Part shown: one piece after another, positions 16,233 through 61,942 of the stretch | How positions within the stretch are numbered: position 1 is the first letter of the stretch | Layout of the letters: each line of letters opens with the position of its first letter | Source of the DNA: an uncultured Thermoplasmatales archaeon | GTDB taxonomy: Archaea; Thermoplasmatota; E2; DHVEG-1 | NCBI GenBank assembly: GCA_964636235.1 | Contig: CAZWQV010000004.1 | Coordinates: 3,257 to 67,256, forward strand | Reading direction: 5' to 3' | Length of the DNA: 64,000 bases | The notes under the pieces: generated by a model | The model's database searches: none | The model's input: the letters and a program-made list of their open reading frames with translations, nothing else | Told to the model about the DNA's origin: nothing | Made by a program: the position numbers and the translations under genes

Positions 16233-16240
16233 TACAATGT

Positions 16241-33859: not shown

Positions 33860-35452
33860 ATGGAAAGAAGATGGATTATTCCGCTCATATGTTTAGGTTT
33901 GACGATAGCGTTATTTCAGGCAATAGCTGCTGAAGAGTATTCTGTTACATGTTCCCCAGAGGTTAATTTACCTGGGGAAATTATTCAATTTATGGTAGTT
34001 GAGGGAGTAGATAGCTACTTTGATATAACCATTAATACACCCGAAGGTGATCTAACAAATGGACCATATAATGGATGGTGCGTAGAAAAAAATGAACAAA
34101 TGTCTCGAAATGTAAATCACACTGCCCATGTCTATTCAAGCTATGATATAAACATGCCAGCTTTTTTCAAAGATGTTGGTGGGATTGAACGTTGGCATAA
34201 AATAAATTATCTTCTCAATAATATTGATTATATTCTTGCTCAAATAGATAATCAAGCAGGTAATGAGACCTGTGATGTAAATAAACATGATATTCAGGAT
34301 ACAATATGGAATATCTGTTGTGGAATATCTTATGAAGATGTAACACCCTGCGCTCAATTAATCATTGATTATTTATCAAATGAATCAAATCAGGAAGAAA
34401 TTTATGCATATTGCCCTCAAATTGGAGATGTACTTGTTGTATTAATTGATACTCAATCTGATGAAGTTCAGGTGCAACATACAATTTTTGAGCTACCCAT
34501 TGTGGAACATGAAGATGACGACGATAATGATGAACCACCAACAAATTTAGGAAGACCTGGGGGAATAGTCCTTAGTGGCAATGCACCACCAACTGCAGAT
34601 GGTTCAAAGGGATCTCCCTACCAAGGTGTTGTTGATGAAACAATAACCTTTGATGGTTCATTAAGTTATGATAGTGATGGAGATGTTGTTGAATGGTACT
34701 GGGATTTCGGTGATGATTCAACTAAGGTTGGAGAAATAGTTACACATGTTTATGATCAGCCAGGTATTTATACGGTTATATTACGGGTAACTGATAATGA
34801 CGGTTCAACAGATTCCTATGCAACATCTGCTGAGATATTACAACCAAATAGGGCTCCCAATATGCCAAATGTTACAGGAAAAACGAATTGTGATCTATCA
34901 AAAAATTATATATATAAAGCAGTATCAACTGATCCTGATAATGATACCATTCGATATATTTTTGAATGGGGTGATGGGGGAAGTAATACGATTTCAAGTT
35001 TCGTTGAAAATAATTCTACAGTTACTATCAATAAAATTTGGAATAAGGCAGGATTATTTTTACTGAAGGTGCTTGCGGAGGATGAATTTAATGTTCCTTC
35101 AGATACTTTTCAGACCTATGTTTTTGTGGATGTTGATGTTGTGTTTCTTGATGAACAACTCAATGGATATCTTCTTGATTTTGGGCGGGATGGTAACTAT
35201 GAGTCTTTTCATAATAATGAAACAGGGGAAGATATTTCATTAGGCAAAAATGATAAAGGTTTGATACTAATAGATAGTGATGATGATGGAGAATGGAATT
35301 GGTTTTATGGTGAAACAGCGGGTCTGCAAGTCTATTCATCTTCCTCTGAAAATCAACAACAATCTGAACTTCCAGTTCAATATTTGGCAATTATAGGTAT
35401 TATGGTAATTATAGCAATTATCTTCCTTGTGTTTATGATTAAAAGAAGATAA
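33860..35452 (+). CDS. Surface protein, PKD-domain family member A (signal peptide, Cys-containing N-domain, 2 PKD domains, DxDG-rich C-module, TM + basic tail)
   Basis: GGGGAGG SD 8 nt upstream. PKD signatures WYWDFGDDS, DNDTIRYIFEWGDG; C-terminal LLDFGRDG...IDSDDDGEWN; ends ...IIAIIFLVFMIKRR. Paralogous to 57436..58947. Confidence 0.7.
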   Translation: MERRWIIPLICLGLTIALFQAIAAEEYSVTCSPEVNLPGEIIQFMVVEGVDSYFDITINTPEGDLTNGPYNGWCVEKNEQMSRNVNHTAHVYSSYDINMPAFFKDVGGIERWHKINYLLNNIDYILAQIDNQAGNETCDVNKHDIQDTIWNICCGISYEDVTPCAQLIIDYLSNESNQEEIYAYCPQIGDVLVVLIDTQSDEVQVQHTIFELPIVEHEDDDDNDEPPTNLGRPGGIVLSGNAPPTADGSKGSPYQGVVDETITFDGSLSYDSDGDVVEWYWDFGDDSTKVGEIVTHVYDQPGIYTVILRVTDNDGSTDSYATSAEILQPNRAPNMPNVTGKTNCDLSKNYIYKAVSTDPDNDTIRYIFEWGDGGSNTISSFVENNSTVTINKIWNKAGLFLLKVLAEDEFNVPSDTFQTYVFVDVDVVFLDEQLNGYLLDFGRDGNYESFHNNETGEDISLGKNDKGLILIDSDDDGEWNWFYGETAGLQVYSSSSENQQQSELPVQYLAIIGIMVIIAIIFLVFMIKRR

Positions 35453-35538
35453 TCAATCTTTTTCTTTATAATAAAAAAAGCTATTTATGTAAAAGAATGA
35501 TGTCACTTATACAGTTTAAAATATTATAATGAAATTAA

Positions 35539-35934
35539 TTGGAGACCCACTATACTATGCCTGGATTTCTTCCACACTTTATCATGGGAAATGTTTTCTT
35601 TTTTATTGGTTGGCAATATCTGAAAAATTTTTCTAATGAAACATATTATGGAAGAGATTATTTATTACTTTATATCGTATGTATTTTCGGAAGTATAATA
35701 CCAGATTTTCCTTTAGGTTTGTATTATCTTTTTGGTATTAGTTCATTCACAACATTGTTGAGATATCATGTTATTTTGCATTTAATAATAAGCCCTTTGG
35801 CTGTAATTTCTTTCATTATCTTAAATAGTGTTAGTAATAGTCGATCAAAGCCAATCTGGCTCTTTGGTGTGATATGCGTCATTGTCCATGTGTTGATGGA
35901 TGCAACTATTGAAGAAATGGGGGTTTGGATTTAG
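35539..35934 (+). CDS. Membrane-bound metal-dependent hydrolase-like protein (DUF457/YdjM-like), tentative
   Basis: Four TM helices with conserved His/Asp (HVLMD). Confidence 0.3.
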   Translation: METHYTMPGFLPHFIMGNVFFFIGWQYLKNFSNETYYGRDYLLLYIVCIFGSIIPDFPLGLYYLFGISSFTTLLRYHVILHLIISPLAVISFIILNSVSNSRSKPIWLFGVICVIVHVLMDATIEEMGVWI

Positions 35935-36101
35935 CGATTAAATGAATCAATAATTTAGTTCTAAATGGATATAATTAATATATATTTTTGATAAAATATC
36001 ATTTCATCTTTTTTTCACCATCTTTTTAAATACTTTTTTTCAAAAAATATTGGTAGAAGATGGTCTAATAATTGCTCTTCCATCTATATGGAGAAATCAC
36101 C

Positions 36102-36329: not shown

Positions 36330-36455
36330 GATTTGTAAATCAGTACAAAATAATAAATATGTTAGGTTTTTTGTAGGTAAGTAATTTTTCTTCTATTCTA
36401 ATTGGAGGGTAATATTTTTATACATATGTTGCTTCCCTTCTTCAGGAGGCAATTG

Positions 36456-37403
36456 ATGAAAGATTCTCATATTCTTGTTACTGGGGGAGCAGGTTTTATT
36501 GGTTCAAATTTAGTTCAAAGACTTGTTGAACAACAAAACAAAGTTGTGGTTATTGATAATCTTTCCACTGGAAAATTGCATAATATTAAACCTTTCATAG
36601 ATGATCAATCCATTCAATTTATAAAAGGAGATATTACCAATTATTCAAGGGTATTAGAAACAATAGAAAAATATAATATAACGCATATTTTTCATTTGGC
36701 TGCGCAGGTAAGTGTTCCATTAAGTGTGGAAAGGCCAAGAGACACACATGAGATTAATGTGAATGGAACCGTTAACGTGTTGCAAGCAGCAAAAAATCAA
36801 CATGTCCAAAAAGTAGTATTTAGTAGTTCATGTGCAGTTTATGGAAATAACAACCAGGAAAATGCAATAAAAGAAACTGATGTAACTCAACCATTAAATC
36901 CCTATTCATTAAGTAAACTTATAGGTGAACAATATTGCTCTCTTTATTCTTATTGTTTCAATCTACCTTGTGTATCATTACGATATTTTAATGTCTATGG
37001 TCCTAAACAAGATCCAGATGGAGAATACGCTGCAGTCATTCCGAAATTTATAGATAGGTTACAATCTAAACATGCACCAATTATTTATGGCAATGGGGAT
37101 CAAACAAGGGATTTTGTCTATATTGATGATGTTGTAAATGCAAATTTATTAGCTGCAGAGAAAGATATACAAGGAATTTTTAATATCGCAACAGGCAAAC
37201 AAACTTCTATTAGAGAACTTGCCCTAACAATCATGAGAGAAATGGATGATTTTTACGATCCTGTTTACATGAATCCTCGATTATGTGAGATATATCATTC
37301 TATTGCAAACATTTCAAAGGCATCAATAGAGATTTCATATGAGATTACCCATCCTCTGGATAAAGGGATAAGGAAGACAATTGAATGGTTTAATAAAAAT
37401 TAA
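36456..37403 (+). CDS. NAD-dependent nucleotide-sugar epimerase/dehydratase (UDP-sugar 4-epimerase-like SDR)
   Basis: GGAGG SD 6 nt before the ATG at 36456. TGGAGFIGS Rossmann motif and a YxxxK catalytic dyad (YSLSK). Confidence 0.75.
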   Translation: MKDSHILVTGGAGFIGSNLVQRLVEQQNKVVVIDNLSTGKLHNIKPFIDDQSIQFIKGDITNYSRVLETIEKYNITHIFHLAAQVSVPLSVERPRDTHEINVNGTVNVLQAAKNQHVQKVVFSSSCAVYGNNNQENAIKETDVTQPLNPYSLSKLIGEQYCSLYSYCFNLPCVSLRYFNVYGPKQDPDGEYAAVIPKFIDRLQSKHAPIIYGNGDQTRDFVYIDDVVNANLLAAEKDIQGIFNIATGKQTSIRELALTIMREMDDFYDPVYMNPRLCEIYHSIANISKASIEISYEITHPLDKGIRKTIEWFNKN

Positions 37404-37487
37404 TTACAAATAAATTATAATAAAGTATATATTCATATAATGAATTGATAGCTTATCCGGTATCATCAATAATAATTCAGATTACTA

Positions 37488-38306
37488 ATGAATCCCTGGT
37501 GGGGGATAAAAAAGGTGTGGAATCAATCAAATAAAATTCAACGACATTTACCCATCCAAATTCTTGGAATTATTCTTACCTGCGTTGGAATTATGCTTCT
37601 AATAAATCCCACAAATTTACTGGTGAAAATAAGTTTCGGTCTGATTATAATTGGAACATTTATGATAGTTATGACTGCGGGAAATTACATTCCAAAACAA
37701 ACAAGCGATTCAAAGATTAAAGGAAATATGATTCCTATTTATAAATTAATTATTCAATTGAAATTAAAAGGCAATGCCGTCTTTATCCCAATCTCAAAAA
37801 AGCTCAATGAAGAAAGGATTTTTATTTCCCCTAATGAAAAAGGTAACATTCGCATTCCTGATATTAAAAATGATAAGGTCATTTTATATGACAAAAATGG
37901 GGAAATTTTAGGCATTGCTCTTCCTCCATCAGGTTTATCCTTATTAGATGAAATAGATAAAGAAAAGGATTTTGATAAAAATAATTTAAAACATATTGAA
38001 ATGAACCTAAAAAAATTCGTTGGTATTGATTTAATCAAATCTGTTTCCCTAATGAAAACAATAGTTGGATACAAACTTGAAATTATCCTAAATAATCCTG
38101 AATTTTGTTTTAAAAATCAGCGTTTATGCAGACAATATCCCTGTCCAACATGTAGTGCTGTTTTAACTGCAATATCCCGGTCAACTGTATCAACAAAAAA
38201 AAGATTATGGATAAAAAATATTCAACGAAGGGGTAATTCAGTAGTTTATTATCTTAATTTTATCGATCAAAATACTGGAAATGAGGGAGAATATGTTGAT
38301 AACTGA
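37488..38306 (+). CDS. Hypothetical membrane protein with C-terminal Cys cluster
   Basis: Two N-terminal TM helices, a soluble domain, and CRQYPCPTC near the C-terminus. Confidence 0.35.
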   Translation: MNPWWGIKKVWNQSNKIQRHLPIQILGIILTCVGIMLLINPTNLLVKISFGLIIIGTFMIVMTAGNYIPKQTSDSKIKGNMIPIYKLIIQLKLKGNAVFIPISKKLNEERIFISPNEKGNIRIPDIKNDKVILYDKNGEILGIALPPSGLSLLDEIDKEKDFDKNNLKHIEMNLKKFVGIDLIKSVSLMKTIVGYKLEIILNNPEFCFKNQRLCRQYPCPTCSAVLTAISRSTVSTKKRLWIKNIQRRGNSVVYYLNFIDQNTGNEGEYVDN

Positions 38307-38541
38307 GAAAATCATTTTATTTATGTGCATATGGATTTCGGTAAGTTTGTTGATTACAAATGAATTACAATTTGAAATTTTCTTAATCCTTATTCTTATT
38401 GGTTTTGTAATTATTAAAGAAATTACTAATCCTTTTATTGTAGGAAAAATAAAATTTAAATTAAATTTCTTTATTTTGATTTTTTTAATAGTATTCAGTC
38501 TCGTTATATTTAATAGAATTATTGGCTACGTAACAAGTTAA
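38281..38541 (+). CDS. Hypothetical small membrane protein
   Basis: 86 aa, three hydrophobic segments. Confidence 0.25.
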   Translation: MRENMLITEKIILFMCIWISVSLLITNELQFEIFLILILIGFVIIKEITNPFIVGKIKFKLNFFILIFLIVFSLVIFNRIIGYVTS

Positions 38542-38558
38542 AAGGATTTAGATCAATT

Positions 38559-39560
38559 ATGACAGAACATCGATTACTTCCATGGCATATTATTCTTTGT
38601 TTTGGATGGTGCATCTTCTATTATATTTTATACCTATTCAATGGAAGCACTCTTCGGATCCTTTTTGGAATACCCTTTCTTTTTTTCATTCCTGGTTTTC
38701 TATTTATATTAAGTTTATTTCCTTCATCCCGCATTGATAAAAAAATAAATTTGTTTGAAAGGTTGGTACTAAGCATTGTTTTTTCTTTGGCCATTGTTTC
38801 TCTTATTGGTATTGGTCTAAATTTTACTCAATTAACCCTATCTCTTTTTTGGTTTGCAACGTTTCTCCTTGGGTTTAATATCTCTTTTAGTATTATTTCA
38901 TTATTGAGATGGTATCAACAAAAACCTACTGAAAGATTTATCATAATTTTACCGAAAAAAATTAAAAAAGTACGAAAACCGTTTGAATCTGTGTTAAATA
39001 TTATTCTTTTCCTAGTTGCTCTTTCTACCTTTATCGTGATAATTTATGTTACTATTTCTTCGTTTGTATTGTTATCTGAAAGAGGCGAATTTTTTACTGA
39101 ATTTTATATACTTGGAGAAGGAAAAAATGCAAACAACTATCCTAAAAATATTACCGTTGGAATCCCTCAGTCATTAACAATTGGTATTACAAATTATGAA
39201 AAGGAAGCGATGGATTATACTATTGAAGTATGGTTAATTAATCAAAGTACAGATTCTGATCAAAATCAAAACAATACTCATTCTATATATTATGAGATGT
39301 ATTTTCTTAAAAAAATAGAAGTATTTTTGCCTGTATACACACTAGAAGTTGAAAACTTATCAAATCCACAGTGGCAATATCAATATCAATTCAATATCAG
39401 CAATTTATCTGGTCGATATAAAATGCAATTTCTCCTATATGATCATTCCACGGATGATTATTATAAGGATAAAAACTATTATTATATAGCAGATGAAAAG
39501 ATTGGTACTGCCTATCGATCTTTACATCTATGGATGAATATTATTGATGATTCATTATAA
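38559..39560 (+). CDS. Membrane protein of archaeal glycosylation clusters (DUF1616-like), tentative
   Basis: N-terminal multi-TM region then an extracytoplasmic domain with several N-x-S/T sequons. Confidence 0.35.
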   Translation: MTEHRLLPWHIILCFGWCIFYYILYLFNGSTLRILFGIPFLFFIPGFLFILSLFPSSRIDKKINLFERLVLSIVFSLAIVSLIGIGLNFTQLTLSLFWFATFLLGFNISFSIISLLRWYQQKPTERFIIILPKKIKKVRKPFESVLNIILFLVALSTFIVIIYVTISSFVLLSERGEFFTEFYILGEGKNANNYPKNITVGIPQSLTIGITNYEKEAMDYTIEVWLINQSTDSDQNQNNTHSIYYEMYFLKKIEVFLPVYTLEVENLSNPQWQYQYQFNISNLSGRYKMQFLLYDHSTDDYYKDKNYYYIADEKIGTAYRSLHLWMNIIDDSL

Positions 39561-39584
39561 TTTAATTAGAAAGAGGATTAAGAC

Positions 39585-40562
39585 GTGAATAAAAATATTG
39601 TTTTTTTAGCAAAATTACCTGACACTTTATTGTCTTGGTTATCTCTTCAAATTTTTCGTGAAAAACCGTCCTTGATTATTTTCACCCTACATGGATTATT
39701 TCAAAATGAAAAAGAGATGCTTTTAAATCATGTTGATCCACAATTGGGTATTACTTTACATCATTTCGAACAATTTATTCGCTATTTTTTACAATCGGAT
39801 TATCAATTTATTTCACCAATTGATCTTAATAATGGTTTAGATCCAGAAAAATATTATATCATGCTTACCTTCGACGATGGCTATTATAATAATACTTATG
39901 CTCTAAAATATCTTAAAAAATATCAAATTCCTGCTTCATTTTTTATATCTATGGATCATATATTAAATCAAAAATGTTTCTGGTGGGATGTTCATTATAG
40001 ACGGAGAAAACAACAAGGATTTTCTACCTCTCAGATTCTTATTGAGCAAGATCAATTGAAATCATTATCAAATGCATCTATTGAAAAAAAGCTTATCAGT
40101 TGGTTTGGCAAAGATGCTTTTCATTCATTTGGGAATATTGATAGACCTTTTTCAATAGAAGAATTAAAATCTTTCGCTGCAGAACCTTTGGTTCATATTG
40201 GAAATCATACCAAAGACCATTCGATTTTGACGAATTTAACTGAACAGGAAATTAAAAATCAAATAGTAATAACTCAAGATTTCCTAAAAGAAATAACAGG
40301 TGGTTATCCAATAATGATTTCCTATCCAAATGGTAATTATTCTGAAAAAATAATATCAATTTCAAATAAGGCAGGGTTGAAAATAGCTTTTACAACAGAT
40401 GAAAGGAAAAACTATATGCCTTTCCAGAATATTTCATCAACAAAGTTACTGCATCGATTTGATTTAACAGAGAATGATATAATACTTCGTCAATGTATGT
40501 TATCTAGATCTGACATAGTACTTTATAGACTGTTGATTAAATTAATAAAAAGAAAATATTAA
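39585..40562 (+). CDS. Polysaccharide deacetylase (NodB homology domain)
   Basis: NodB motifs TFDDGY and ...H... Typical of glycan clusters. Confidence 0.6.
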   Translation: MNKNIVFLAKLPDTLLSWLSLQIFREKPSLIIFTLHGLFQNEKEMLLNHVDPQLGITLHHFEQFIRYFLQSDYQFISPIDLNNGLDPEKYYIMLTFDDGYYNNTYALKYLKKYQIPASFFISMDHILNQKCFWWDVHYRRRKQQGFSTSQILIEQDQLKSLSNASIEKKLISWFGKDAFHSFGNIDRPFSIEELKSFAAEPLVHIGNHTKDHSILTNLTEQEIKNQIVITQDFLKEITGGYPIMISYPNGNYSEKIISISNKAGLKIAFTTDERKNYMPFQNISSTKLLHRFDLTENDIILRQCMLSRSDIVLYRLLIKLIKRKY

Positions 40563-40789
40563 TTTAATATTATATTAAATTATTAAAAATCATATAAAAA
40601 AATAATTCTAATTTATATAGTAATTTGCTATATTTTTACTTCATATGATTAAAATATTATTTTTGGAAATAGGGTTTTTTTGTGAAATGAAAAGGGTATT
40701 GTATATAAATTAGAATAAATCTCAATTACTTCTCTGTTTATTAACATAAAAATTTAAATATTTAATACTGTTTTACAGTAGTAGATGGC

Positions 40790-41713
40790 ATGGAATTGGG
40801 GGAGAATTTAGATATTTCTACCAACAACAAGCGCACATTGGCTGCTATTCCTTGCTTCAATGAGGCAACCTCAATTGGGAGTGTTATACTTAAGGCAAAA
40901 CGCTATGTCGATGAAGTGCTTGTTGTTGATGATGGAAGTACAGACGACTCATCAGAAATTGCCCTTTATGCAGGTGCAAGTGTTTTAAAACACGAAAAAA
41001 ATAGAGGTTATGGAGCAGTTATTCAGAGTTGTTTTAAATATGCTCGTGAACATAATTTTGATGTAATGGCAATTATTGATGGTGATGGACAACATGAAGC
41101 TGATGAATTACGAACGGTTATGAAACCGGTACTTGATAACAATATTGATATATCCATTGGGTCTCGATTTGTTGAAAATAATGGGAAAAATATCCCTAAA
41201 TATAGGCGTTTTGGAATAAATGTATTAACCAAAATAACCAATGCAGGTTCGAGTGCTTCTCATAAAATATCCGATGGGCAGAGTGGATTCCGGGCATATT
41301 CAAAAAGAGCGATTGGTACTCTAAATCCGAAGGATAATGATATGGGAGTTTCTGCTGAAATTATTATGCAAGGAAGAAAAAAACAATTATCATATGCAGA
41401 GGTACCAATTTCATGTCGGTATGATCTTAATGGTTCAACCAAAAATCCCGTTGGTCATGGGATTGGAGTCATATTGTCAATCGTAAAATATATGGAAGTA
41501 GAACATTCATTGTTATTTTTTGGTGTTCCTGGATTAATATTGTTTGCTCTTGGTTTGCTTGTGGGTTTCAATGTATATTCGAGCTATTATGGAACCGGTG
41601 AACTTGCTATTGGAAATGCTTTGATTACTATTGTTCTTATTATCGTGGGATCTCTTTCAGGAATGACAGGATTGGTTTTACATGCTGTTATTAATGCAAA
41701 CCGCAGATCATAA
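40790..41713 (+). CDS. Dolichyl-phosphate hexose synthase-like GT2 glycosyltransferase (AglD/AglJ/DPM1-like) with C-terminal TM anchor
   Basis: AIPCFNEATSIG...VVDDGSTDDS, a DGDGQH (DxD) motif, and a C-terminal TM hairpin. Confidence 0.7.
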   Translation: MELGENLDISTNNKRTLAAIPCFNEATSIGSVILKAKRYVDEVLVVDDGSTDDSSEIALYAGASVLKHEKNRGYGAVIQSCFKYAREHNFDVMAIIDGDGQHEADELRTVMKPVLDNNIDISIGSRFVENNGKNIPKYRRFGINVLTKITNAGSSASHKISDGQSGFRAYSKRAIGTLNPKDNDMGVSAEIIMQGRKKQLSYAEVPISCRYDLNGSTKNPVGHGIGVILSIVKYMEVEHSLLFFGVPGLILFALGLLVGFNVYSSYYGTGELAIGNALITIVLIIVGSLSGMTGLVLHAVINANRRS

Positions 41714-42728
41714 GAATAATAACTGTTCCAGTTTTATTTCAGTTATCGTGGCGATTAAAAATGAAGAAGATTATATTGAAAAATGTTTAGATTCATTGGT
41801 CAATCAAACAATATCAAAAGACGTGTATAGAATAATGATTGTTGATGGTGGATCAACAGACAATACGATAAACCTTATTACACCTTATATTAAAAAATAT
41901 CCTGATTTCATTACTCTTTTTCATAACCCAAAACAATGGCAATCTTGTGGAAGAAATATTGCTATTGCTCATGATGATAAGAGCAATCTCATTGCTTATA
42001 TTGATGGTCATTGTATTGCTGATGCTTATTGGCTTGAAAATTTATATCATAGTTATATGGAAAGCAAATCTGATAGTCTAGCTGGTATTGGATCGATTCA
42101 TTGCAGCCCAGATGATGAAACAAAAATTGGAAAAGCAATAGATCAAGTATTCTTAACTCCTCTTGGGGGAATGGGTACCTCTTATCAACCTCAAAAAGAA
42201 AAAAAATCTGTTATGACTGCACCTTTTGTATTATATTCAAAAAAAGCTGTTCAACAAGTTGGCGGCTATGATGAAGATATGAAAATAGGTGAAGATTTTA
42301 CATTAAATTATAAATTAAAGGAAAAGAAATTTTCATTATTCATTGAACCAAAAGCTATTGTTTATTATTATAAAAAACAATCATTTATCGCCTTTTTTAA
42401 ACAAATGTTAAATTATGGATATGCAAAGGCAATTATTGCAAAAAAATATCCATCGTCGATTTCTATATTTCAATATATTCCTAGTTTATTTTTATTAGGT
42501 TTATTTGTAAATGTCCTGTTAGTATTATTTTTACCAATAGTAATTTTTTTTATTGGTGCTGTAGTACTATGTTATCTTATTCTTATTTTATCATTCACTC
42601 TCCTAACAACTCTTAGAAAGCAAGAAGTATTCTATTGTTATTTTATGCCGATTATTTTTCTGTTACAACATATTGGTTTTAGTATTGGATTTCTCATTGG
42701 CCTATTTAAAAAAGGGTGGGCTCAATGA
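41682..42728 (+). CDS. GT2 family glycosyltransferase with C-terminal TM domain
   Basis: ISVIVAIKNEEDYIEKCLDSLVNQT, a DGGSTDNT motif, and C-terminal hydrophobic helices. Confidence 0.6.
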   Translation: MLLLMQTADHKNNNCSSFISVIVAIKNEEDYIEKCLDSLVNQTISKDVYRIMIVDGGSTDNTINLITPYIKKYPDFITLFHNPKQWQSCGRNIAIAHDDKSNLIAYIDGHCIADAYWLENLYHSYMESKSDSLAGIGSIHCSPDDETKIGKAIDQVFLTPLGGMGTSYQPQKEKKSVMTAPFVLYSKKAVQQVGGYDEDMKIGEDFTLNYKLKEKKFSLFIEPKAIVYYYKKQSFIAFFKQMLNYGYAKAIIAKKYPSSISIFQYIPSLFLLGLFVNVLLVLFLPIVIFFIGAVVLCYLILILSFTLLTTLRKQEVFYCYFMPIIFLLQHIGFSIGFLIGLFKKGWAQ

Positions 42729-43858: not shown

Positions 43859-43870
43859 GAGGCTATCAAT

Positions 43871-44998: not shown

Positions 44999-45032
44999 AT
45001 GAATGTGTATTAATTGAACTAAGGTAATTAGA

Positions 45033-46868: not shown

Positions 46869-46950
46869 AATGGTATATTAATAAGTATTTAGAAATATAT
46901 ATTAATGATATTATGTATGAATATAAAAAAGGATATAAATAAATATATTT

Positions 46951-48141: not shown

Positions 48142-48164
48142 ATGTATATTTTTATATATCATTA

Positions 48165-48698: not shown

Positions 48699-48935
48699 AT
48701 TTTTTCCAATCTTTGAATAAATCGTTAGATTGGATATAAAGTGGAATCTATTATGCTTTACTCCTTTTAATATAAATGCAAAATAAAAAAATATATGTTT
48801 AAGGATTTGATTTAAAAAAATTTGTAAAAATTATTTCAATAAATATTATAATATATCAAGTATTTCAGGTATAAATAATAAAAAAATTAATTGAGGGAAC
48901 TAAAGGTTAACAATATGCATTTGGGGGAACTATGA

Positions 48936-49961: not shown

Positions 49962-50042
49962 TCCTTGGATAAGATACTAAAGGATACCTAAAACAAATGG
50001 TGATATGTAATATAATACTATAAGGAAACGGGAGTATTTGAT

Positions 50043-51644: not shown

Positions 51645-51875
51645 GTATACTACAAAAATAAACTATATTTTATTATATAATTATCAAGTGCGATATCAAT
51701 CTTATTGATCATTCTCATATCTATTAGTTTTTTATAAACTAATTAAAAAAATATTTAAATAAATATTAAAATGTTTAGAAAAATTGATAATAGAAGGAAT
51801 GATTACTAATATCATCAATTAAACTTTGATATTAATACGAATGAAATTGATTGGTATAATACTAATGATTCATGG

Positions 51876-52793: not shown

Positions 52794-54210
52794 TACTGGT
52801 TTTAAGAGTAAAAATTGGTTAGTTCTTAATTTACCGGATACTCCAACAAATGTTATTAGTAGGAGTTGGGCCGGTACTTTTGGAACAGCTGAGATAAAAA
52901 CACAACAAAAAGTACGAAGATTTCTACCAATTTGGATGCTCTATACAATTTCAGCATTAATCAATGATAGCGCATCGTTTCGGGTAATGGATGCTCAAGC
53001 TGAAGGCCTTGATAATAATCAAACGTATGAAGCAATCAAGAAAATGAACCCAGATGCTATCATAACCCTCATCTGTCTTCCATCTTATCATAATGATTGT
53101 GCATTGATAAAAAAGATAAAACAATCCTTTCCAGAAACAATTATTGTTATCCTTGGAGGTCTTGTATATATTGATCCACAAAAAATGTTAGAACAATCAG
53201 ATGCTGATATTCTTTTACACGCAAGATTTCCATTTTATAACTCTGTTAAAGCATTTCTTTCAAAGGGATTTGATGCAGATGGGATCATATATAAGAAAAG
53301 AAATAGTATTGAAATTAACCCTGCGATTGCAGATTCAAATGATCTTGATTATATTAATATACAAGCGTATGATTATTTACCACTTAATAAGTACATTCTC
53401 AGTGCAACAGATCGGGAGGGAAACACTATTTCATGGCTTCCTATTCTTACTGGTGTAGGATGCCCTTATTCCTGTACTTATTGTGCCTACCCGATTGCAT
53501 ATGGAAAAAAAATTCATTATAAGACTATTGATAAGATCATTGATGAGATACAACATATAGTAAAAACATATCATATTTCTGGATATTGTTTGCGAGATGT
53601 TGTTTTTACCAAAGATCGGGATAGAGTCATTAGTTTTTGTAAGAAATTAGAAGAAAAAAATCTTAAGATAAAATTTTTCTTTGAAACAAGAATTGGATTG
53701 CTAGATAAAAAACTTATTGATATCTTAAAAAAAGCGGGCTGCTTTCAAATGAATATAGGTGTAGAATCTGGAAGTCCTGATATTCTCAAAAAAGTAGGAA
53801 AACCAGGGATAAATATTAATCTGTTAAAAGAAACATTTCATTTATTAGACCAGGCTGGAATTAACACTATGGCTCATATTATTATTGGTCTACCTGGTGA
53901 AAATAAACACACTATAAAACAAACCTATAATCTATTGAAAAAAATACATGCGACAGAAGTAAATGTAAATTTTATTACTCCCTATCCTGGTACGAAATTT
54001 TATGATTATGCAACAAAGAATGATTTGATTTTAGATTATAATTGGGATAATTATACCAGCCATAATCTTGTAATGAAATCAGAGTATTTATCCGGAGAAA
54101 AATTGAAAAAACAAGGTATGAGACTTGAAAGAAAGCTATTTTTTTATAAATTACTTCATAATAAGCAATTTAGAATACAATGGATAAAAAATAGAAGAAA
54201 CCATGACTAA
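52774..54210 (+). CDS. B12-binding domain radical SAM protein
   Basis: N-terminal cobalamin-binding-like domain; CPYSCTYC (CxxxCxxC). The start may lie upstream, overlapping the previous gene. Confidence 0.65.
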   Translation: MGGNYISTGFKSKNWLVLNLPDTPTNVISRSWAGTFGTAEIKTQQKVRRFLPIWMLYTISALINDSASFRVMDAQAEGLDNNQTYEAIKKMNPDAIITLICLPSYHNDCALIKKIKQSFPETIIVILGGLVYIDPQKMLEQSDADILLHARFPFYNSVKAFLSKGFDADGIIYKKRNSIEINPAIADSNDLDYINIQAYDYLPLNKYILSATDREGNTISWLPILTGVGCPYSCTYCAYPIAYGKKIHYKTIDKIIDEIQHIVKTYHISGYCLRDVVFTKDRDRVISFCKKLEEKNLKIKFFFETRIGLLDKKLIDILKKAGCFQMNIGVESGSPDILKKVGKPGININLLKETFHLLDQAGINTMAHIIIGLPGENKHTIKQTYNLLKKIHATEVNVNFITPYPGTKFYDYATKNDLILDYNWDNYTSHNLVMKSEYLSGEKLKKQGMRLERKLFFYKLLHNKQFRIQWIKNRRNHD

Positions 54211-54228
54211 TAATTTTTATTTCTCTTT

Positions 54229-55728
54229 TTATCTTTGCTTAAGTAGCGAAATCATAAATTTCATTTCTTCTTTTTTCAATCCTTTTATAAGATATAAAAT
54301 AATGAAATATGCAATCATACTTAAAAAAATACAGGCTATAAGACTAAAAAATGATGCTGGTTGCCATACATAACAAATAATTCCAACAATGGCTGAAGCA
54401 AATAGGGTTTTGAATAATGTTGTTGGTTTTATTCCAAACCGCATCTCTTTCATAGAAAAGATTATGATAATTATAGCTGAAAAACAATAGGATAGTAGAG
54501 TGGCAACAGCAGCACCTAAAATACCATAATAGGGGATAAGACCAAAATTTAAGATGAGATTTAAGAGAGCAGTAATTGTAACAATAATACCAATTTTTGA
54601 TGTTTTTTTACTCATGCGCAAGGTCTTATCATAGATTACGAAGAGACCTGAGAAAAGTGAACTTATTGCAATGAGGGGTGTGATAAACCAGCCGTTTTCT
54701 GCTATGTTAGAAGTTGTAAAAAAAGATAATATTTGCTTTGATAAAAAAGAGAGACCTACAATTGCAGGCAGGGCTAATAATAAATAAATTTTAAGAATAA
54801 AACGAAGGTACATTTTCACTTTTGAAATATCTCCCTCATCAAAAAATTTTGCAATTGTGGGCATTAAAACAAAATCAAATAATTCAACAACCATAAAAAA
54901 AAGAAAACCAACATTATATGCAGCTGCATAAATACCAACATTTGAAAATTCCATATAAAAACTTATTACATAACGATCACTAAACATGATTATCCATAGG
55001 GAAATTCCGGTTGGAATCAGTGGAAGACCATATTTTAAATATGTTTTTAAATCATGAAATCGGGGGAGTGAAATCCCAATTTCTGAAAAAATAATTACTA
55101 CATAAATAAAAACAAAACATATTTCTACAAATAAATAACCCTGAAGTGCACCAAAGATGCCGTTACCTAAATAGATCATATAAAATGCAAGGGCGATTTT
55201 TGCATAGTTATCAATAATTCTAAAGAAGGAATATAATTTAATTTTCCGTAATGAACGAAAATAAAATTGGCAAAGAATATTTGTTCCACCAATGAGAAAG
55301 ATAAATCCGGTTATAAACACAATATTTGTCTTATTATCGAAAAAATAATATGCAATTGTATCAGAAAAAATTATAAACAATAATAAGATAATAATTGAAA
55401 CAATAAATTTAAAAACTAAAATAGATAAAAAAAGTTGCTGTTTTTCACGTATTTTCTTTTTTGCTGGCAGAAAACGAACAAGAGCATTGTTTAATCCAAA
55501 GGATGCAATAGGACTTAAAATACCAATAGTTACCATAGCCTGTTGCCACAATCCATAACCATAGGCACCAAGTGTTTTTGTGATGAGTGGAATAAGAATG
55601 ATGCCACCAAGGGCAACTAAAATTTCAGCGATACCAACAAAACCAATATCCTTGATAAAGGTACCAATTTCAGAATGAGAAGAGTTATTATTTTTTGAAG
55701 ATGGAATCGTTTCGTTTTTTTGTTTCAT
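54229..55728 (-). CDS. Oligosaccharide flippase (Wzx/MOP superfamily polysaccharide biosynthesis protein)
   Basis: 499 aa with about 12-14 TM helices, of typical Wzx length, inside the glycan cluster. Confidence 0.55.
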   Translation of the reverse strand: MKQKNETIPSSKNNNSSHSEIGTFIKDIGFVGIAEILVALGGIILIPLITKTLGAYGYGLWQQAMVTIGILSPIASFGLNNALVRFLPAKKKIREKQQLFLSILVFKFIVSIIILLLFIIFSDTIAYYFFDNKTNIVFITGFIFLIGGTNILCQFYFRSLRKIKLYSFFRIIDNYAKIALAFYMIYLGNGIFGALQGYLFVEICFVFIYVVIIFSEIGISLPRFHDLKTYLKYGLPLIPTGISLWIIMFSDRYVISFYMEFSNVGIYAAAYNVGFLFFMVVELFDFVLMPTIAKFFDEGDISKVKMYLRFILKIYLLLALPAIVGLSFLSKQILSFFTTSNIAENGWFITPLIAISSLFSGLFVIYDKTLRMSKKTSKIGIIVTITALLNLILNFGLIPYYGILGAAVATLLSYCFSAIIIIIFSMKEMRFGIKPTTLFKTLFASAIVGIICYVWQPASFFSLIACIFLSMIAYFIILYLIKGLKKEEMKFMISLLKQR

Positions 55729-56017: not shown

Positions 56018-57295
56018 ATGAGGAATAAATTTTACTACTTTATGGTTAGTTTTTGTCTCTTATATATTATTATAAATAGTTCATTTGTTCTTGGATCTAC
56101 TCAGATTGAACCTGATAGTTTGGATAGTCCGATAAGAAAATATTTCAACAAACAAAAAATTTTATGGACATTTGATGATTATTATATATGTTATGATTTT
56201 CCACCCCATAGAGGTTTTTCTAATCTCACTAAAAGAATTATATCCTATGGCGGGCATGTGAATATAATGACAATTTTATTTCATGTTAATGAAGCAAAGG
56301 ATATTAAAAACTATTCCGTTATTGATGACTTAGGATGGGAACCACAGGAAATAAATAGAAGCTTAACATTTTTTTCACAGGAACATGTATATCCTGCATG
56401 TCATGGATGGGATGCAAGATCTGAACTATTAAACAATGCTTCTTTGGAAGAGGCATATGAAATTATAAACCATACACTTTGGAACTGGGAAAATAATTTT
56501 CATATACAACCAACGTTTTTCCTTGGTGATAGCACAAGTGGAAATTATAATATTACCCTTGCGTTAAAAAAATTTAGTGAAATATATTGGCCGGTTTATG
56601 GTGAAAATTTCCGCTGGGATCAAGAGGAACTTTTTTCTCCTCCAACAAGAGATACCCCTGCAATATCATACATAGGTAAAGAACCATATATAGCAATGTT
56701 TGATCCTTTATTTGGACTGCCTTGGGGCAATCCATGTGAATCGCTGGAAGATGCGCAAAATTTATTCATTAATCAAACTGAGAATAAGGAGATAATATTT
56801 ATCCGTGGACATCCATCTTCATTAAATAAGTCTGAAACAACTCCATACTATAGCCTTTGGATTGAATGGATCGATTGGATTTATCAAAACCACGAATTAA
56901 CTAACATTAATCATACCGAAGCAATTTATTATATTGCTGATAGAGAGGCATTTAAAATAGAACGGCAATCTCCTGACAAATTTATTATAAATTTATCTTC
57001 ATGTTCTTTTGATCATGATATTTTATTTTCACAACCTTATGATGGGTATTATTATAATTGGACATTGTATAGGGGGCAAAAGGAAGTTGCATCGTTTTAT
57101 GACGATTACACTATTCATTTATCTGCTGGTCAATCATACACAATGGAGACAAATGATAAAGTTGAGATTCCTTTAGAGAAAAATGCACAATATAAGAATA
57201 TTTATGAAAGAATACCTGGTTTGAATCTTATATTTTTGCTTCTTTGTTTTATTGTTATAAGCATTTTCATTAAAAAAATTCGAAACAAATCATAA
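56018..57295 (+). CDS. Secreted/anchored hypothetical protein (signal peptide, C-terminal TM + basic tail; possible deacetylase-like fold)
   Basis: N-terminal signal peptide; WTFDDYY motif; ends ...IPGLNLIFLLLCFIVISIFIKKIRNKS. Confidence 0.4.
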   Translation: MRNKFYYFMVSFCLLYIIINSSFVLGSTQIEPDSLDSPIRKYFNKQKILWTFDDYYICYDFPPHRGFSNLTKRIISYGGHVNIMTILFHVNEAKDIKNYSVIDDLGWEPQEINRSLTFFSQEHVYPACHGWDARSELLNNASLEEAYEIINHTLWNWENNFHIQPTFFLGDSTSGNYNITLALKKFSEIYWPVYGENFRWDQEELFSPPTRDTPAISYIGKEPYIAMFDPLFGLPWGNPCESLEDAQNLFINQTENKEIIFIRGHPSSLNKSETTPYYSLWIEWIDWIYQNHELTNINHTEAIYYIADREAFKIERQSPDKFIINLSSCSFDHDILFSQPYDGYYYNWTLYRGQKEVASFYDDYTIHLSAGQSYTMETNDKVEIPLEKNAQYKNIYERIPGLNLIFLLLCFIVISIFIKKIRNKS

Positions 57296-57435: not shown

Positions 57436-58947
57436 ATGAAATTGCCTAATTTACTCGTGTTCTCGAGTATAATGCTATTAGTATTGAGTAGCGTATCATT
57501 TATTAATTTAGTTTCTGCTGAAACAGAATGTTCAATTACCATTAATTTACCAAATAATCCAGTTACGTTAATCGTTAACAATGGAATTAGTAGTTATTTT
57601 CAAATGAATCTTACTGGGTTTCATTCTGAAAATGATATTACAAATGGGTCTTATCTTGGTTGGTGTGCCCAAAGAACTACGAAAATCAGCAGGGGCGTAT
57701 CCCATGGGGTATGGGTTTGTTCTAGTTATGATTTAACTTCGTCTTTTTCATCTTTTGAATATGTATCATGGGATAAAATCAATTACATAATTAATCATAA
57801 GGACTATTTTGATAATGATCCAATAATAATTCAACAATTAATTTGGAATTTGACAGATAACATTTCGTATTCTGATCCAATCATAAATGGTTATTTGCAG
57901 GATATTAATATTAATGGATCTGGTTATTGCCCATCTGATGGTGACATTATTGCTATTCTTGTTAAAAGTGGGGATAATATAATAAATCCTCAAAGAACTT
58001 TTTTTGAAACAAATGTTCCTGATCAAAACGAGGATGAGCCATCTGAAGATGATGATGAAGGTGGTGTGGTCTATGGCAACCATCCACCAACGGCGGATGC
58101 CACTGCTGGAGAACCTTATCAAGGTTTTGTTGGGGAATCAATTCTCTTTGATGGTTCATTAAGTTATGATGTTGATGGATGGATTAGAGCCTACTATTGG
58201 CAATTTGGTGATGGTCAAACAGGGACAGGTAGGACGTATTCCCAAGTTTTCAATGATGAAGGTATTTACTCAGTTTTATTAACAGTTGAGGATAATGATG
58301 GTGCAACAAATGGGTATTCTACTTCAGTTGAAATTCTAAGTGCAAATCAACCTCCAAGAAGTCCCACTCTTACCGGGCAAAGAGATATAGAAATTGATAC
58401 GATTACGCCCTTCACGGTAGTAGCAATTGATGAAGATAACGATACGATTCGATATATTATTGATTGGGGTGATGGAACAAATACTACTACTACAGATTTT
58501 TATGAAAATAACACCCCTGTTACTGTTTATCATTCCTGGTCTTCATCTAATTTATATTTAGTAAAGGTATTTGCAGAAGATGATTTAGGTAGTCCTTCTG
58601 ATACAACTCAACAATTTGTTTTTGTGAATGTAACTGTAATATTCATTGATGATGACATAGAGGGATATTTAATTGATTTTGGAAAAGATGGGCTCTTTGA
58701 CTCATTTCATAATAATGGAACTGGCATGGATACAGATGTTGAAAAGAATTCTGACGGATGGTATTTAATCGATAGTAACAATGATGGAGAATGGAATTAT
58801 CAGTATAGAGCAGATATAGGATTATTACCATATCAAATAGAACAACAAAAATTCAATTACACCTATATTATCCTCATTCTGGCTGCGATCATAATAATAA
58901 TCATTATAGCTTTCTTATATAAAAAAAGAAATATTCTAATCAAATAA
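57436..58947 (+). CDS. Surface protein, PKD-domain family member B (paralog of 33860..35452)
   Basis: Signal peptide; GWC N-domain; PKD signatures (YYWQFGDGQ, DNDTIRYIIDWGDG); C-module YLIDFGKDG...IDSNNDGEWN; ends TM + KKRNILIK. Confidence 0.7.
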   Translation: MKLPNLLVFSSIMLLVLSSVSFINLVSAETECSITINLPNNPVTLIVNNGISSYFQMNLTGFHSENDITNGSYLGWCAQRTTKISRGVSHGVWVCSSYDLTSSFSSFEYVSWDKINYIINHKDYFDNDPIIIQQLIWNLTDNISYSDPIINGYLQDININGSGYCPSDGDIIAILVKSGDNIINPQRTFFETNVPDQNEDEPSEDDDEGGVVYGNHPPTADATAGEPYQGFVGESILFDGSLSYDVDGWIRAYYWQFGDGQTGTGRTYSQVFNDEGIYSVLLTVEDNDGATNGYSTSVEILSANQPPRSPTLTGQRDIEIDTITPFTVVAIDEDNDTIRYIIDWGDGTNTTTTDFYENNTPVTVYHSWSSSNLYLVKVFAEDDLGSPSDTTQQFVFVNVTVIFIDDDIEGYLIDFGKDGLFDSFHNNGTGMDTDVEKNSDGWYLIDSNNDGEWNYQYRADIGLLPYQIEQQKFNYTYIILILAAIIIIIIIAFLYKKRNILIK

Positions 58948-59083
58948 TCATAAAATTTTCTTTTTTAAATTTCGTAAAATCTATATAAAAATATTTTATT
59001 CAAATATTGCCACAAAGCCTAATATAATTGATCCTATGCTGAGGAATATTAGTAATCAATTGTTGGGAGGTAATTGAATTCAT

Positions 59084-61942
59084 ATGAAGAAACAATGGAT
59101 TATATTATTAATTGTAATGATAATAATTTTTCTTCTTTTTATACAATATTTTCAAATGAATTGTAATATTCCGCTAAAACCTAATGAGTCTTTAAATCCT
59201 GATGAATGTGGTGGTTTTATTGCAACAGGTTCAGTCTGTATAAATAATAGAAGTATGCTATTAAAGAATAGACATAGTGATAAACCAGGAACCATGAAAC
59301 CTTTTTATTATCAGGGAACTAATTACTCATTTATTGCTTTTGGAACATATAGCAAAGAGGTTGGAAGACCATATTGTCGCATGGGCATAAATGAAAAAGG
59401 TCTTTCTATAGGAAATTTTGATCAATCCGAACTTATCTCCGATGGGAATTGGAACTATATTTCAGATCATATTAGCGAAAATGAAGATTATGATATGTGG
59501 TACATATTAGGAAATTTTGATACAGTTAAAACTGCTGCAACATGGCTTGTTCATCATGCCTCTTATCCTTGCCAATGGGCAATTGTAAGTAAAGAAAAAG
59601 GGGTGGGGGCTATTGTTGCAATGGATAAAGAGTATCATGGGAATATTTCTTGGATAAATAATACATATATGGCTCTTGGAAATCGATTGTATTGTGAGCA
59701 ACAATTTAATGCTCAAATGAGGAGAACTCAGTATCTAGCGGATCAGATATATTATCATGGGATTGGCATAGAATCAACCATACCATATGCATTTTCGATA
59801 AAAGATATTGCCCTCATTTTAGCAAAAGATATCAATGCAAGTAATAACCAGTATCCTTGGTTACAAGAACCAGCATCAGGTATATATTCAGGTTACTATA
59901 TCATTGGCCAAACCGGCTCAATATGCCCGACTAGTTCCACATCATGTATGCTTGCAGTTTCAGGTGATGACAAATATAATGACTCAACAAATCTTGTTTT
60001 TTTTACTTCAGGTTATAATCCACATATAGGTCTTTTTGTTCCTATTAGTGCATCATATTTAAAAGATCAAGATGATATTCCTTTAGTATTCAGAACTGAA
60101 ATTGGTATACAACAATTTACTAATGTAGCTCAATCATATGCAGAGAATATCCCGGGTTACTATAATCGATCAAGAACGCACTATATTCATAATACAACTG
60201 ATAAATTAGAAAGTGAAATGATAGAATCATATGAGGCCATTGTTAACTTAATCCCTATCAATGAATCATATACAAATGTTCAGCATATAATACAATCATA
60301 TTGTTATAATCAGACATATAATGCTTTATCTCAATATAGAGATCTTTTTATTAAATCAATCACCCTTATTATACCCAATGAATCATATGTTTGTGGCAAT
60401 GTACAATATGTGTTTAATAAAACGTTACCATTTTATCCTTTTGAGCATACATCAGATGTCTTGATTTTAAATTCTACTGTTTGTAAAATTGATGCATTTG
60501 AACCATTGAATATTACTATAACTTATCTTAATGAGAATACACAGATAACTAAAGATGATGAATTATTAATGGAATGGTATTCAACTCCTGCAGGACGACA
60601 TGTTATTTTCAATTATTCAGGATTTAAACCATATTGCTTCTATAAAATAATTCATAATAATCAAACCACTATTATTCAATCAACATCAAAAGGTCATATA
60701 CTATATTTTTCAGTATTAGAAAAAGAAAATCATTTTCAAATACAAACAGTAAATTACACTGATAAATCTCCGACAGCCGATTTCACATTTACACCATCGA
60801 ATCCAATTGAAGGGGAGAGAGTTAGCTTTAATGCATCAATGTCATATGATGATGGAAATGATATTCAATATTACTGGGATTTAAATGATGATCATATTGT
60901 GGATCAGCAGGGTAAAAAAATTCATCATGAATTCACAACGGCAGGGACTTACTATGTTAACTTAACCATAAAAGATACCTCAAATCAATCTGATTGGATA
61001 GTAAGAGCTATCGTTATTCAAAAACCATCAAATTCAAAAAAATCTGGATCTGATAGTTCAAATCTACCAGAGTATAATATTAATACTCCTCCCAAATGCA
61101 TCTGTTCGATGGAACCGTTGCACGTATCAATCAATGAAACAATTCTTTTTAATGCCTCAGAAAGTTATGATCCCGATGGAACAATTGTCAGTTATTATTG
61201 GGATTTCGGTGATTCACATAATGAAGAAGGAAAAATCTGTAACCATACCTTCATGAAAGATGGAAGATATATGGTCATTTTAACAGTAATTGACGATGAT
61301 GGAGCAATGGATACAAATACAACATATATAATGGTACATCAACAAAACTTACCCCCCTCTCAATTAATCATTCAAGGTGAAACTTGTCTAGAAATAAATG
61401 TATCTTATCCTTTTTTCTTTCATGCAATAGATGTTGATGATGATTTTCTCAATCTTACTGTTGATTGGGGCGATGGAACACGAGATTCTACATGTATTTT
61501 GAATAATATTACATTTCCTCTTAATCATAGCTGGCAAAAAAGTGGAGAATATATCATTAAAGCACACGTTTCAGATGAATTCAAGTCTTTATCAGAATCA
61601 GTTGAATATAAATTAATTGCTGGAGAAATTGTATGTAAAATAGATGCTGAGATAAAGGGATATATTCTAAAACTAACATCGGAACCCAGATCGTTAATCT
61701 TTTATGATAACGAAACAAAAATTCATTATGATGTAAAGGAAAAAAATAATGGAACATACATAATTGATTATGAAAATGATGACTCATGGAAATATGGTAT
61801 TGCCTCAAATGGAATAGTTTATCTCAATATTCAATTTGAACAAAAAGAGACATCAGCAATAGAATTCAAATGGGTGATACTATGTGGGTTGATTGCTAGT
61901 CTTTGTTATTTTTTTATGATAAAAAAAATGATTAAAAAATAA
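59084..61942 (+). CDS. Large surface protein: N-terminal Cys-containing domain (possible Ntn-hydrolase-like) + 3 PKD domains + shared C-module + TM/basic tail
   Basis: 952 aa with signal peptide. PKD signatures (YYWDLNDDH, SYYWDFGDSH, NLTVDWGDGT). C-terminal IIDYENDDSWKYG module, then TM and MIKKMIKK. Confidence 0.65.
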   Translation: MKKQWIILLIVMIIIFLLFIQYFQMNCNIPLKPNESLNPDECGGFIATGSVCINNRSMLLKNRHSDKPGTMKPFYYQGTNYSFIAFGTYSKEVGRPYCRMGINEKGLSIGNFDQSELISDGNWNYISDHISENEDYDMWYILGNFDTVKTAATWLVHHASYPCQWAIVSKEKGVGAIVAMDKEYHGNISWINNTYMALGNRLYCEQQFNAQMRRTQYLADQIYYHGIGIESTIPYAFSIKDIALILAKDINASNNQYPWLQEPASGIYSGYYIIGQTGSICPTSSTSCMLAVSGDDKYNDSTNLVFFTSGYNPHIGLFVPISASYLKDQDDIPLVFRTEIGIQQFTNVAQSYAENIPGYYNRSRTHYIHNTTDKLESEMIESYEAIVNLIPINESYTNVQHIIQSYCYNQTYNALSQYRDLFIKSITLIIPNESYVCGNVQYVFNKTLPFYPFEHTSDVLILNSTVCKIDAFEPLNITITYLNENTQITKDDELLMEWYSTPAGRHVIFNYSGFKPYCFYKIIHNNQTTIIQSTSKGHILYFSVLEKENHFQIQTVNYTDKSPTADFTFTPSNPIEGERVSFNASMSYDDGNDIQYYWDLNDDHIVDQQGKKIHHEFTTAGTYYVNLTIKDTSNQSDWIVRAIVIQKPSNSKKSGSDSSNLPEYNINTPPKCICSMEPLHVSINETILFNASESYDPDGTIVSYYWDFGDSHNEEGKICNHTFMKDGRYMVILTVIDDDGAMDTNTTYIMVHQQNLPPSQLIIQGETCLEINVSYPFFFHAIDVDDDFLNLTVDWGDGTRDSTCILNNITFPLNHSWQKSGEYIIKAHVSDEFKSLSESVEYKLIAGEIVCKIDAEIKGYILKLTSEPRSLIFYDNETKIHYDVKEKNNGTYIIDYENDDSWKYGIASNGIVYLNIQFEQKETSAIEFKWVILCGLIASLCYFFMIKKMIKK

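Follow-up and report, generated by a model that had tools for sequence, protein, structure and literature searches.

Introduction

Archaeal surface proteins are poorly annotated, and several described systems offer a measure for the locus considered here, a cluster of genes for PKD-domain proteins beside an archaeosortase gene in DNA of an uncultured archaeon (contig CAZWQV010000004.1; the whole 64-kb stretch analysed is called the window, and positions are counted from its first letter). The PGF-CTERM, Heimdall-CTERM and Loki-CTERM proteins (TIGR04126, NF045529, NF033507) are secreted, rich in PKD domains and end in a transmembrane (TM) helix with a basic cluster, and the window proteins resemble them in all these respects. 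Each archaeosortase subfamily studied has a motif of its own, and permuting PGF blocks processing by ArtA (review PMC6098224). We found no literature on Heimdall-CTERM or Loki-CTERM, nor on archaeosortases in Thermoplasmatota. For the enzyme encoded in the window, the nearest described systems are ArtB with VPXXXP-CTERM proteins and XrtH with its associated membrane protein (TIGR04144, TIGR04177, NF041730). The PGF-pre-PGF domain (TIGR04213) of archaeal surface proteins typically lies just ahead of the C-terminal anchor. Gram-positive TIE adhesins join a thioester domain (TED; PF08341) to stalk domains and an LPXTG anchor (PMC4450167).

An initial annotation of the window had proposed that three paralogous proteins share a novel N-terminal domain and a C-terminal module, and that this module, a TM helix and a basic tail together form a new tripartite sorting signal. 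We find that the C-terminal module (C-module) is a newly defined domain, uncatalogued but widespread, and that the proposed sorting signal is not supported as stated. We think it rather probable that the proteins are modular surface proteins of adhesin type, probably N-glycosylated, in which the module belongs to a stalk and a plain-looking TM helix serves as the anchor, with cleavage by a sortase as a possibility.

Results

Three paralogous PKD surface proteins

Three genes on the forward strand, characterised by translation, Pfam searches, alignment and BLAST of the module, make up the family. The first (33860-35452, 530 amino acids (aa); Pfam PKD_4, 90.6 bits) encodes a signal peptide (33860-33931), a TED-like N-domain (33932-34501), a PKD domain (34580-34825), a PKD-like domain (34847-35116), the C-module (35117-35341) and a TM helix that ends in KRR (35384-35449). 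The second (57436-58947, 503 aa) has a signal peptide (57436-57519), a TED-like N-domain (57514-58017), a PKD domain (58078-58323), a PKD-like domain (58333-58614), the C-module (58615-58839) and a TM helix followed by KKRNILIK (58867-58944). In the third (59084-61942, 952 aa) a Cys-rich N-terminal region without a family assignment (59084-60766) precedes three PKD or PKD-like domains (60767-61606), a degenerate C-module (61607-61831) and a TM helix with KKMIKK (61874-61939).

The paralogy claimed by the initial annotation was borne out. Over the C-terminal ~300 residues, the 57436 and 59084 proteins are 43% and 27% identical to the 33860 protein, and in each of the three the PKD domains (PF18911 or PF00801) score far above the Pfam gathering thresholds. 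Alignment confirmed that the N-domain of ~170-190 aa with GWC...SSYD is common to the 33860 and 57436 proteins. A block GYL(I/L)DFGxDG...FHNNxTG...LIDSxxDGEWN is likewise common to all three, with module-to-module BLAST E values between 5e-25 and 4e-8 (small database), and each of the three translations closes with one hydrophobic helix and Lys or Arg behind it. The novelty claimed for the two domains also holds, as neither the N-domain nor the C-module reaches the cut-off of any Pfam or NCBIfam model.

An exact look-up of the 57436 protein gave no match, and the N-terminal 560 residues of the 59084 protein matched nothing in Pfam or, by sequence and profile searches, in the PDB. The latter protein has 20 Cys in all. 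After its signal peptide it starts ECGGF...LLKNRH, which may recall N-terminal-nucleophile hydrolases.

The C-module is a widespread, predicted all-beta domain with two similar halves

The C-module is 75 residues long. Scanning the window proteins and 77 homologues one by one, we found no Pfam or NCBIfam model that matches it; searches for a PDB sequence relative and a word-indexed homology search with the C-module were also without a match. With a profile built from the three window copies, an exhaustive HMMER search of 1.84e9 cluster representatives yielded 483 clusters at E<=1e-3, 59 of them at E<=1e-10. From the end of the match to the C-terminus of the protein there are almost always 30-60 residues (median 43.5). 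A recurrent cassette of PKD domain, PKD-like domain, double-DxDxDG module and anchor, present in hundreds of protein clusters, is absent from Pfam and NCBIfam.

The consensus of the module, VxIDVxVxFIDDxIxGYLIDxDxDGxYDxFHNNxTGxETxVExQxDGTYLIDSDGDGxWDYxYNxxTGxLxxY, is built from a YLIDxDxDGx[YW]Dx[FY] unit that occurs twice, and the two halves are homologous (hhalign probability 96.6%, E 5e-10). With Asp or Asn at positions 1, 3, 5 and 9 and Gly at position 6 as the criterion, the family consensus fits the loop D-x-D-x-D-G-x-x-D (D-x-D-x-D-G-x-[YW]-D) twice per module. Calcium-binding DxDxDG loops occur in FG-GAP repeats, thrombospondin type 3 repeats and dockerins, and a calcium-loop reading of the C-module is reasonable at the level of the motif. 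The loops read DFGKDGLFD and DSNNDGEWN in the 57436 protein, DFGRDGNYE and DSDDDGEWN in the 33860 protein, and KLTSEPRSL and DYENDDSWK in the 59084 protein. The block common to all three proteins therefore stands with a qualification for the 59084 copy, whose first loop is stripped of every acidic position.

We modelled the second PKD-like domain and the C-module of the 57436 protein with AlphaFold2 (residues ~300-472, 42-sequence alignment). The model, with a predicted local distance difference test score (pLDDT) of 96.2 and a predicted template modelling score (pTM) of 0.85, contains strands only. The module appears in it as a small beta-hairpin meander packed on a PKD domain and shows neither the helix pair of dockerins and EF-hands nor a propeller blade, which sets it apart from the FG-GAP, thrombospondin type 3 and dockerin families, whose loop pattern occurs in its consensus. 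The earlier proposal of tandem calcium-binding loops of dockerin or EF-hand type is supported as to the two DxDxDG-type loops and not as to the type: the module is predicted to be all-beta, with no helix-loop-helix. We also considered the PGF-pre-PGF domain, which shares with the C-module the place just ahead of the anchor. This identity was rejected, since the C-module proteins do not match TIGR04213 and no NCBIfam model matches the C-module; in addition, the C-module is shorter and built of two DxDxDG units.

The module precedes many kinds of C-terminus

Among the best 150 C-module homologues a TM helix follows the module in 145, and the tails fall into a PGF class (48), a PGF-like class (6), a D[YN]T class (20) and a class of TM helix plus KxGxxYF (5), the rest being motif-less. 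PGF-class tails typically read (T/I)PGFE(L/F)-TM-KRKRK, and PGF- or Heimdall-CTERM tails make up about one third of the 150. In CTERM scans of 77 homologues, Heimdall-CTERM was matched by 21 and Loki-CTERM by 6; one PGF-class tail scored 29.8 bits on Heimdall-CTERM (cut-off 24). Tails in which the TM helix is followed by 20-60 Lys-rich residues, unlike a sortase signal, are frequent. Full-length homologues that keep the order of N-domain, PKD domain, PKD-like domain and module at 36-45% identity also differ in their tails (NTPGFEF in P0014, ESPNW in P0021). The same spread was seen for 27 module proteins in 28 metagenomic loci, most of which end in a TM helix and a Lys-rich stretch, and no open reading frame (ORF) matching the profile of the ArtB/XrtH-clade sortases was found in the flanks of these 28 loci.

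Because it precedes such widely differing tails near the C-terminus, the C-module is a widespread stalk domain near the membrane that is independent of the mode of anchoring, and it is not part of a sorting signal. The idea that module, helix and basic tail act as one sorting unit does not hold, as a PGF/Heimdall-CTERM tail follows in about a third of the 150 homologues and motif-less TM helices elsewhere. The initial annotation had itself named the alternative that the tails are ordinary stop-transfer anchors of the kind found on unrelated proteins throughout the genome; the homologues come close to this, since they often carry an ordinary anchor. Within one and the same protein family, archaeosortase-type tails alternate with plain TM anchors, which helps in tracing the evolution of anchoring modes, and annotators can now tell the C-module apart from genuine sorting signals.

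No common motif in the window tails

The three paralogues and a fourth protein have a TM helix and, right at the end of the chain, a short basic stretch. The fourth is a secreted protein of 425 aa without a family match (56018-57295, forward strand), whose IPGL, TM helix and KKIRNKS are encoded at 57212-57292. The four ends read ELPVQY-TM-KRR (33860), RIPGLNL-TM-KKIRNKS (56018), KFNYTY-TM-KKRNILIK (57436) and SAIEFKW-TM-KKMIKK (59084). No motif is common to them (LPVQY, IPGLNL, FNYTY, AIEFKW), and none reaches a curated CTERM cut-off in scans that covered PGF, PEF, VPXXXP, Loki, Heimdall and others. The 56018 tail scored 12.9 bits on Loki-CTERM (cut-off 19.9), the 33860 and 57436 tails 14.1 bits on the LPXTG anchor model (15.9) and the 33860 tail 11.2 bits on PVV-CTERM (27), while the 59084 tail had no CTERM match at all, even below threshold. 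In this lack of a common motif and of any score above cut-off the window paralogues differ from the PGF-, Heimdall- and Loki-CTERM proteins. A tripartite C-terminus as the mark of archaeosortase substrates is not supported by the four tails.

In a second lineage (locus L006) the orthologues keep each tail individually, as IPGFEL (56018), FDYT (57436) and SGFEF (59084; TSGFEF in full). The statement that no PGF, PEF or VPXXXP motif occurs is literally correct for the window, with the proviso that the 56018 protein has IPGL, its orthologue MIPGFEL against RIPGLNL, and the 59084 orthologue TSGFEF; the 56018 protein and the 59084 orthologue have PGF-like remnants that recall the (T/I)PGFE(L/F) tails of the C-module homologues. 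In a conspecific assembly (L025, gene 3946-5223) the 56018 tail reads RISGLNL instead of RIPGLNL (window 57212-57223). As this Pro is replaced by Ser in a protein that is 99.3% identical, constraint on the PGL motif seems to have relaxed. The window tails look like plain anchors, some of which would descend from PGF-type signals (PGL in the 56018 protein; GFEF changed to AIEF in the 59084 protein). The aromatic residue said to precede the helix is found in three of the four proteins, where it is the ordinary interfacial pattern.

Two further genes had been said to end like the paralogues. For the 56018 protein this is true of the TM helix and basic tail, and the C-module is missing by BLAST. 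The pseudogene at 7967-8594 (reverse strand, two in-frame stops) does not end in this way: BLAST found no C-module there either, and what it encodes is a PGF-pre-PGF domain (75.7 bits on TIGR04213, cut-off 28) followed by EIPW-TM-KMGYLYFDHEEE, a tail with an acidic end that belongs to another class, so that we ruled it out as a family member. Some C-module homologues have a tail of this class, [FIV]PW-TM-K[KT]G[IY][LI]Y[FI]E. In the form [FIV]PW-TM-KxGxxY[FI]E it is seen again behind the C-module of proteins that are not related (P0018, P0122, P0130, P0150 and L038), and it looks like a conserved, undescribed type of C-terminal anchor with an acidic end.

An ArtB/XrtH-like archaeosortase and its inactive partner

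The archaeosortase gene that had been noted at 62073 is genuine: the 180-aa product (62073-62615, forward strand) scores 64 bits on TIGR04178 against a cut-off of 23. It passes the cut-off of no subfamily (ArtB 87.4<150, XrtH 69.5<86, ArtE 60.8<95, ArtA 32.8<75, heimdallarchaeosortase 19<130). ArtB and XrtH are its best subfamily matches, which places it in an ArtB/XrtH-like clade, and it is distinct from both ArtA and heimdallarchaeosortase. The enzyme retains the Cys (ECTG), the Arg (NxxR) and the His, and C94, R135 and H154 show no variation across 8 homologues. The closest sortases in species-representative genomes (48-49% identity) come from metagenome-assembled genomes labelled Thermoplasmatales or Thermoplasmatota; together with the housekeeping genes of the window (G+C ~30%), such relatives indicate an uncultured archaeon as the source.

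Directly behind it, with a start that overlaps the sortase stop by 4 nucleotides, lies a gene for an inactive archaeosortase paralogue (62612-63304, forward strand) in which ECTG has become AELT and NxxR has become HLIxL (hhalign against sortases: probability 92%, E 6.6e-7). XrtH systems have a sortase-like membrane protein in the same downstream position; the archaeal partner differs from it by an extra C-terminal zinc ribbon of C2H2-like type (CPIC...H...H). Since all archaeal loci and six bacterial XrtH-like loci examined have a homologue directly behind the sortase, gene order suggests that the partner may be a conserved accessory subunit.

In related loci the gene just upstream of the sortase usually ends in a tail of sorting type, GVPVFSP in L012, SVPIFSP in L009 and GVPVLSP in L013, and [IVLM]PxxSxWG in the bacterial loci. 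A vWA-like protein of 410 aa that ends GVPVITP-TM-KKRHN is encoded 3 kb downstream in L006 (13580-14833). Because such tails are found beside the sortase in related loci, the cognate signal of this clade looks VPxxxP-like, in line with the ArtB/VPXXXP-CTERM system. The window proteins are without it: there is no VPxxxP protein in the window cluster, and the vWA-like gene survives in this species as a 40-residue remnant just past the window end (L025 13685-13804).

Stalked proteins or dedicated sortase substrates

In the reading that we favour, each paralogue would be exported by its N-terminal signal peptide. The distal head would be a TED-like domain containing Cys and Gln in the 33860 and 57436 proteins and a different, Cys-rich region in the 59084 protein, carried on a stalk of PKD domains. 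The base of the stalk would be the 75-residue all-beta module with its two tandem YLIDxDxDGx[YW]D units, situated near the membrane and putatively stabilised by calcium. The protein would then be held in the membrane by its one C-terminal TM helix, presumably a plain anchor, from which a few basic residues extend into the cytoplasm. Across archaea, the module is paired with the anchor proper to each host, be it a PGF/Heimdall-type archaeosortase signal or a plain TM helix. A role as adhesins is what we infer from this layout. On the evidence of synteny, the adjacent ArtB/XrtH-like archaeosortase may cleave these proteins, the 59084 protein in particular.

We wondered whether the PKD paralogues and the 56018 protein might instead be dedicated substrates of the adjacent archaeosortase, recognised by a motif-loose signal (an aromatic residue, a TM helix and a basic tail, perhaps with the module), cleaved and attached to lipid. 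We consider this unlikely, while several observations speak for it and weigh against the stalk reading. Synteny is kept in two lineages: in several metagenome assemblies (L001-L004; also L025) the 3' part of the window recurs almost unchanged, and the order 425-aa protein, ~500-aa protein, ~950-aa protein, sortase and dead paralogue is conserved in a second lineage (L005-L008) with a sortase that is 59% identical. The 59084 gene occupies the substrate position directly upstream of the sortase, where related loci usually have their sorting-type tail. Within the 64-kb window, ends with a TM helix and basic cluster are restricted to the 33860, 56018, 57436 and 59084 proteins, all in this neighbourhood, and with 3-9 residues their cytoplasmic tails are as short as those of sortase signals. 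The sortase is intact in Cys, Arg and His, and beside it we found a single canonical VPxxxP candidate, which has decayed; this argues that the enzyme would have other substrates. The ELPVQY of the 33860 protein loosely resembles [VI]Pxxx[PS]. Against the calcium part of the stalk reading, the window copies of the C-module have partly degenerate loops. Against dedicated substrates stand four tails that have no motif in common and stay below the CTERM cut-offs, whereas the known archaeosortase subfamilies each have their own motif and ArtA does not process a permuted PGF (PMC6098224). Relatives of the 62073 sortase have clear VPxxxP neighbours, some of the anchors behind the C-module cannot serve as sortase signals, no matching sortase gene was found nearby in other module loci, and strains of the species differ in the proline of PGL.

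It is also conceivable, and to our mind quite improbable, that an ArtA- or Heimdall-like sortase encoded elsewhere in the genome processes the PGF-like tails (the 56018 tail and those ancestral to the 59084 tail), the adjacent enzyme serving VPxxxP proteins only. The orthologue tails IPGFEL and SGFEF do fit the (T/I)PGFE(L/F) consensus of the module homologues that pass Heimdall-CTERM, and the pseudogene with the PGF-pre-PGF domain documents a PGF-type heritage of the lineage; the window versions, however, are PGL or SGL and AIEF and score below the cut-offs, and the 64 kb contain no ArtA-like gene, their only sortase scoring 32.8 on ArtA against a cut-off of 75. The co-occurrence of tails and sortase is divided: synteny holds in two lineages, more distantly related sortase loci have VPxxxP proteins of their own, and module proteins elsewhere are found without a sortase of this clade nearby.

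A thioester-domain lead for the N-domain

The window copies of the N-domain matched nothing in Pfam, NCBIfam or, by sequence and profile searches, in the PDB, and a word-indexed homology search found one fragment only. Further copies are present among the C-module homologues, including a tandem pair in P0037. Downstream of the cluster in L006, an 814-aa protein with a C39-like peptidase domain (15027-17471) has a copy of this Cys/Gln domain at residues 531-689.

An alignment of 15 sequences (A10, whose residue numbering is used here) contains the invariant residues W53, C54, H67, N93, N97, Q110, I113, P143 and E168, and Q163 is conserved in at least 90%. Three motifs define the thioester domains of Gram-positive bacteria (Walden et al. 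2015, PMC4450167). The conserved segments of the N-domain, GWC[VA][QE] (WC-phi-zeta), WxKINYIxNH...[IV]QxxIWx[LF]TD with its helix motif and the C-terminal strand motif [IV]Q[RK]TFxE, match these in kind and in order (Cys, T, Gln), with Trp replacing Y/F/L ahead of the Cys. The Pfam TED model PF08341 matched 3 of the 15 N-domains below threshold (13-15.1 bits, gathering 22; E 0.03-0.14); it was the only family matched by more than one member, and the matches fall exactly on NYIINH...IQNAIWNFTD, at the T motif. The consensus sequence of the N-domain had no Pfam TED match. A comparison by hhalign of the N-domain profile with the class II TED of pLS20 was negative (probability 0.2) and argues against the TED reading; for the pLS20 thioester adhesin we found no PDB relatives. 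AlphaFold2, run for the N-domain on a 3-sequence alignment only, gave a pLDDT of 31 and no usable model.

We treat homology to the TED, tentatively, as a lead and not as a result. That the N-domain actually is a highly divergent thioester domain with a Cys54-Gln163 bond, which would make the ~500-aa proteins an archaeal counterpart of TIE adhesins, we think less likely than not. The layout of head, stalk and anchor is the same in both; the window stalk differs in consisting of PKD domains and not of isopeptide domains. If it were true, a head capable of covalent binding would sit on a PKD stalk with a calcium-loop module at its base and a C-terminal anchor, encoded beside a sortase-like enzyme, and archaea, as far as our literature search shows, would have had no adhesin-type thioester domain described before. 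A possible thioester-type head in archaea and the conserved pair of sortase and inactive paralogue are both directly testable leads.

Neighbouring genes

Between the 33860 gene and the sortase cluster, Pfam matches delimit a glycan-biosynthesis island of ~20 kb (36402-55728) with genes for an epimerase, GT2 and GT4 transferases, a deacetylase, a FemAB-like protein, a phosphodiesterase, a radical SAM protein and a Wzx-like flippase. N-x-S/T sequons number 1.5-3.6 per 100 residues in the surface proteins and mostly 0-1.5 (median ~0.6) in the other ORFs. As sequons are enriched beside a glycan island, the flanking surface proteins fit the picture of putatively N-glycosylated exoproteins.

After the 33860 gene comes a membrane protein of 131 aa without a family match (35539-35934, forward strand). 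By C-terminal similarity and ORF lists, homologues of ~125-131 aa stand beside the sortase cassette in L009 (5162-5539) and L013 (10223-10600). Because these homologues adjoin the cassette, this suggests that the 33860 gene may have belonged to the sortase neighbourhood before the island intervened.

The sole Rfam match in the window is a tRNA gene (24786-24857, reverse strand). At 3111-6983 the forward strand encodes a 1290-aa protein with Ig-like Big_7 and Big_1 matches (Big_1 below the Pfam cut-off), 47 N-glycosylation sequons and no C-terminal TM helix, which is probably a further secreted surface protein with another kind of anchoring.

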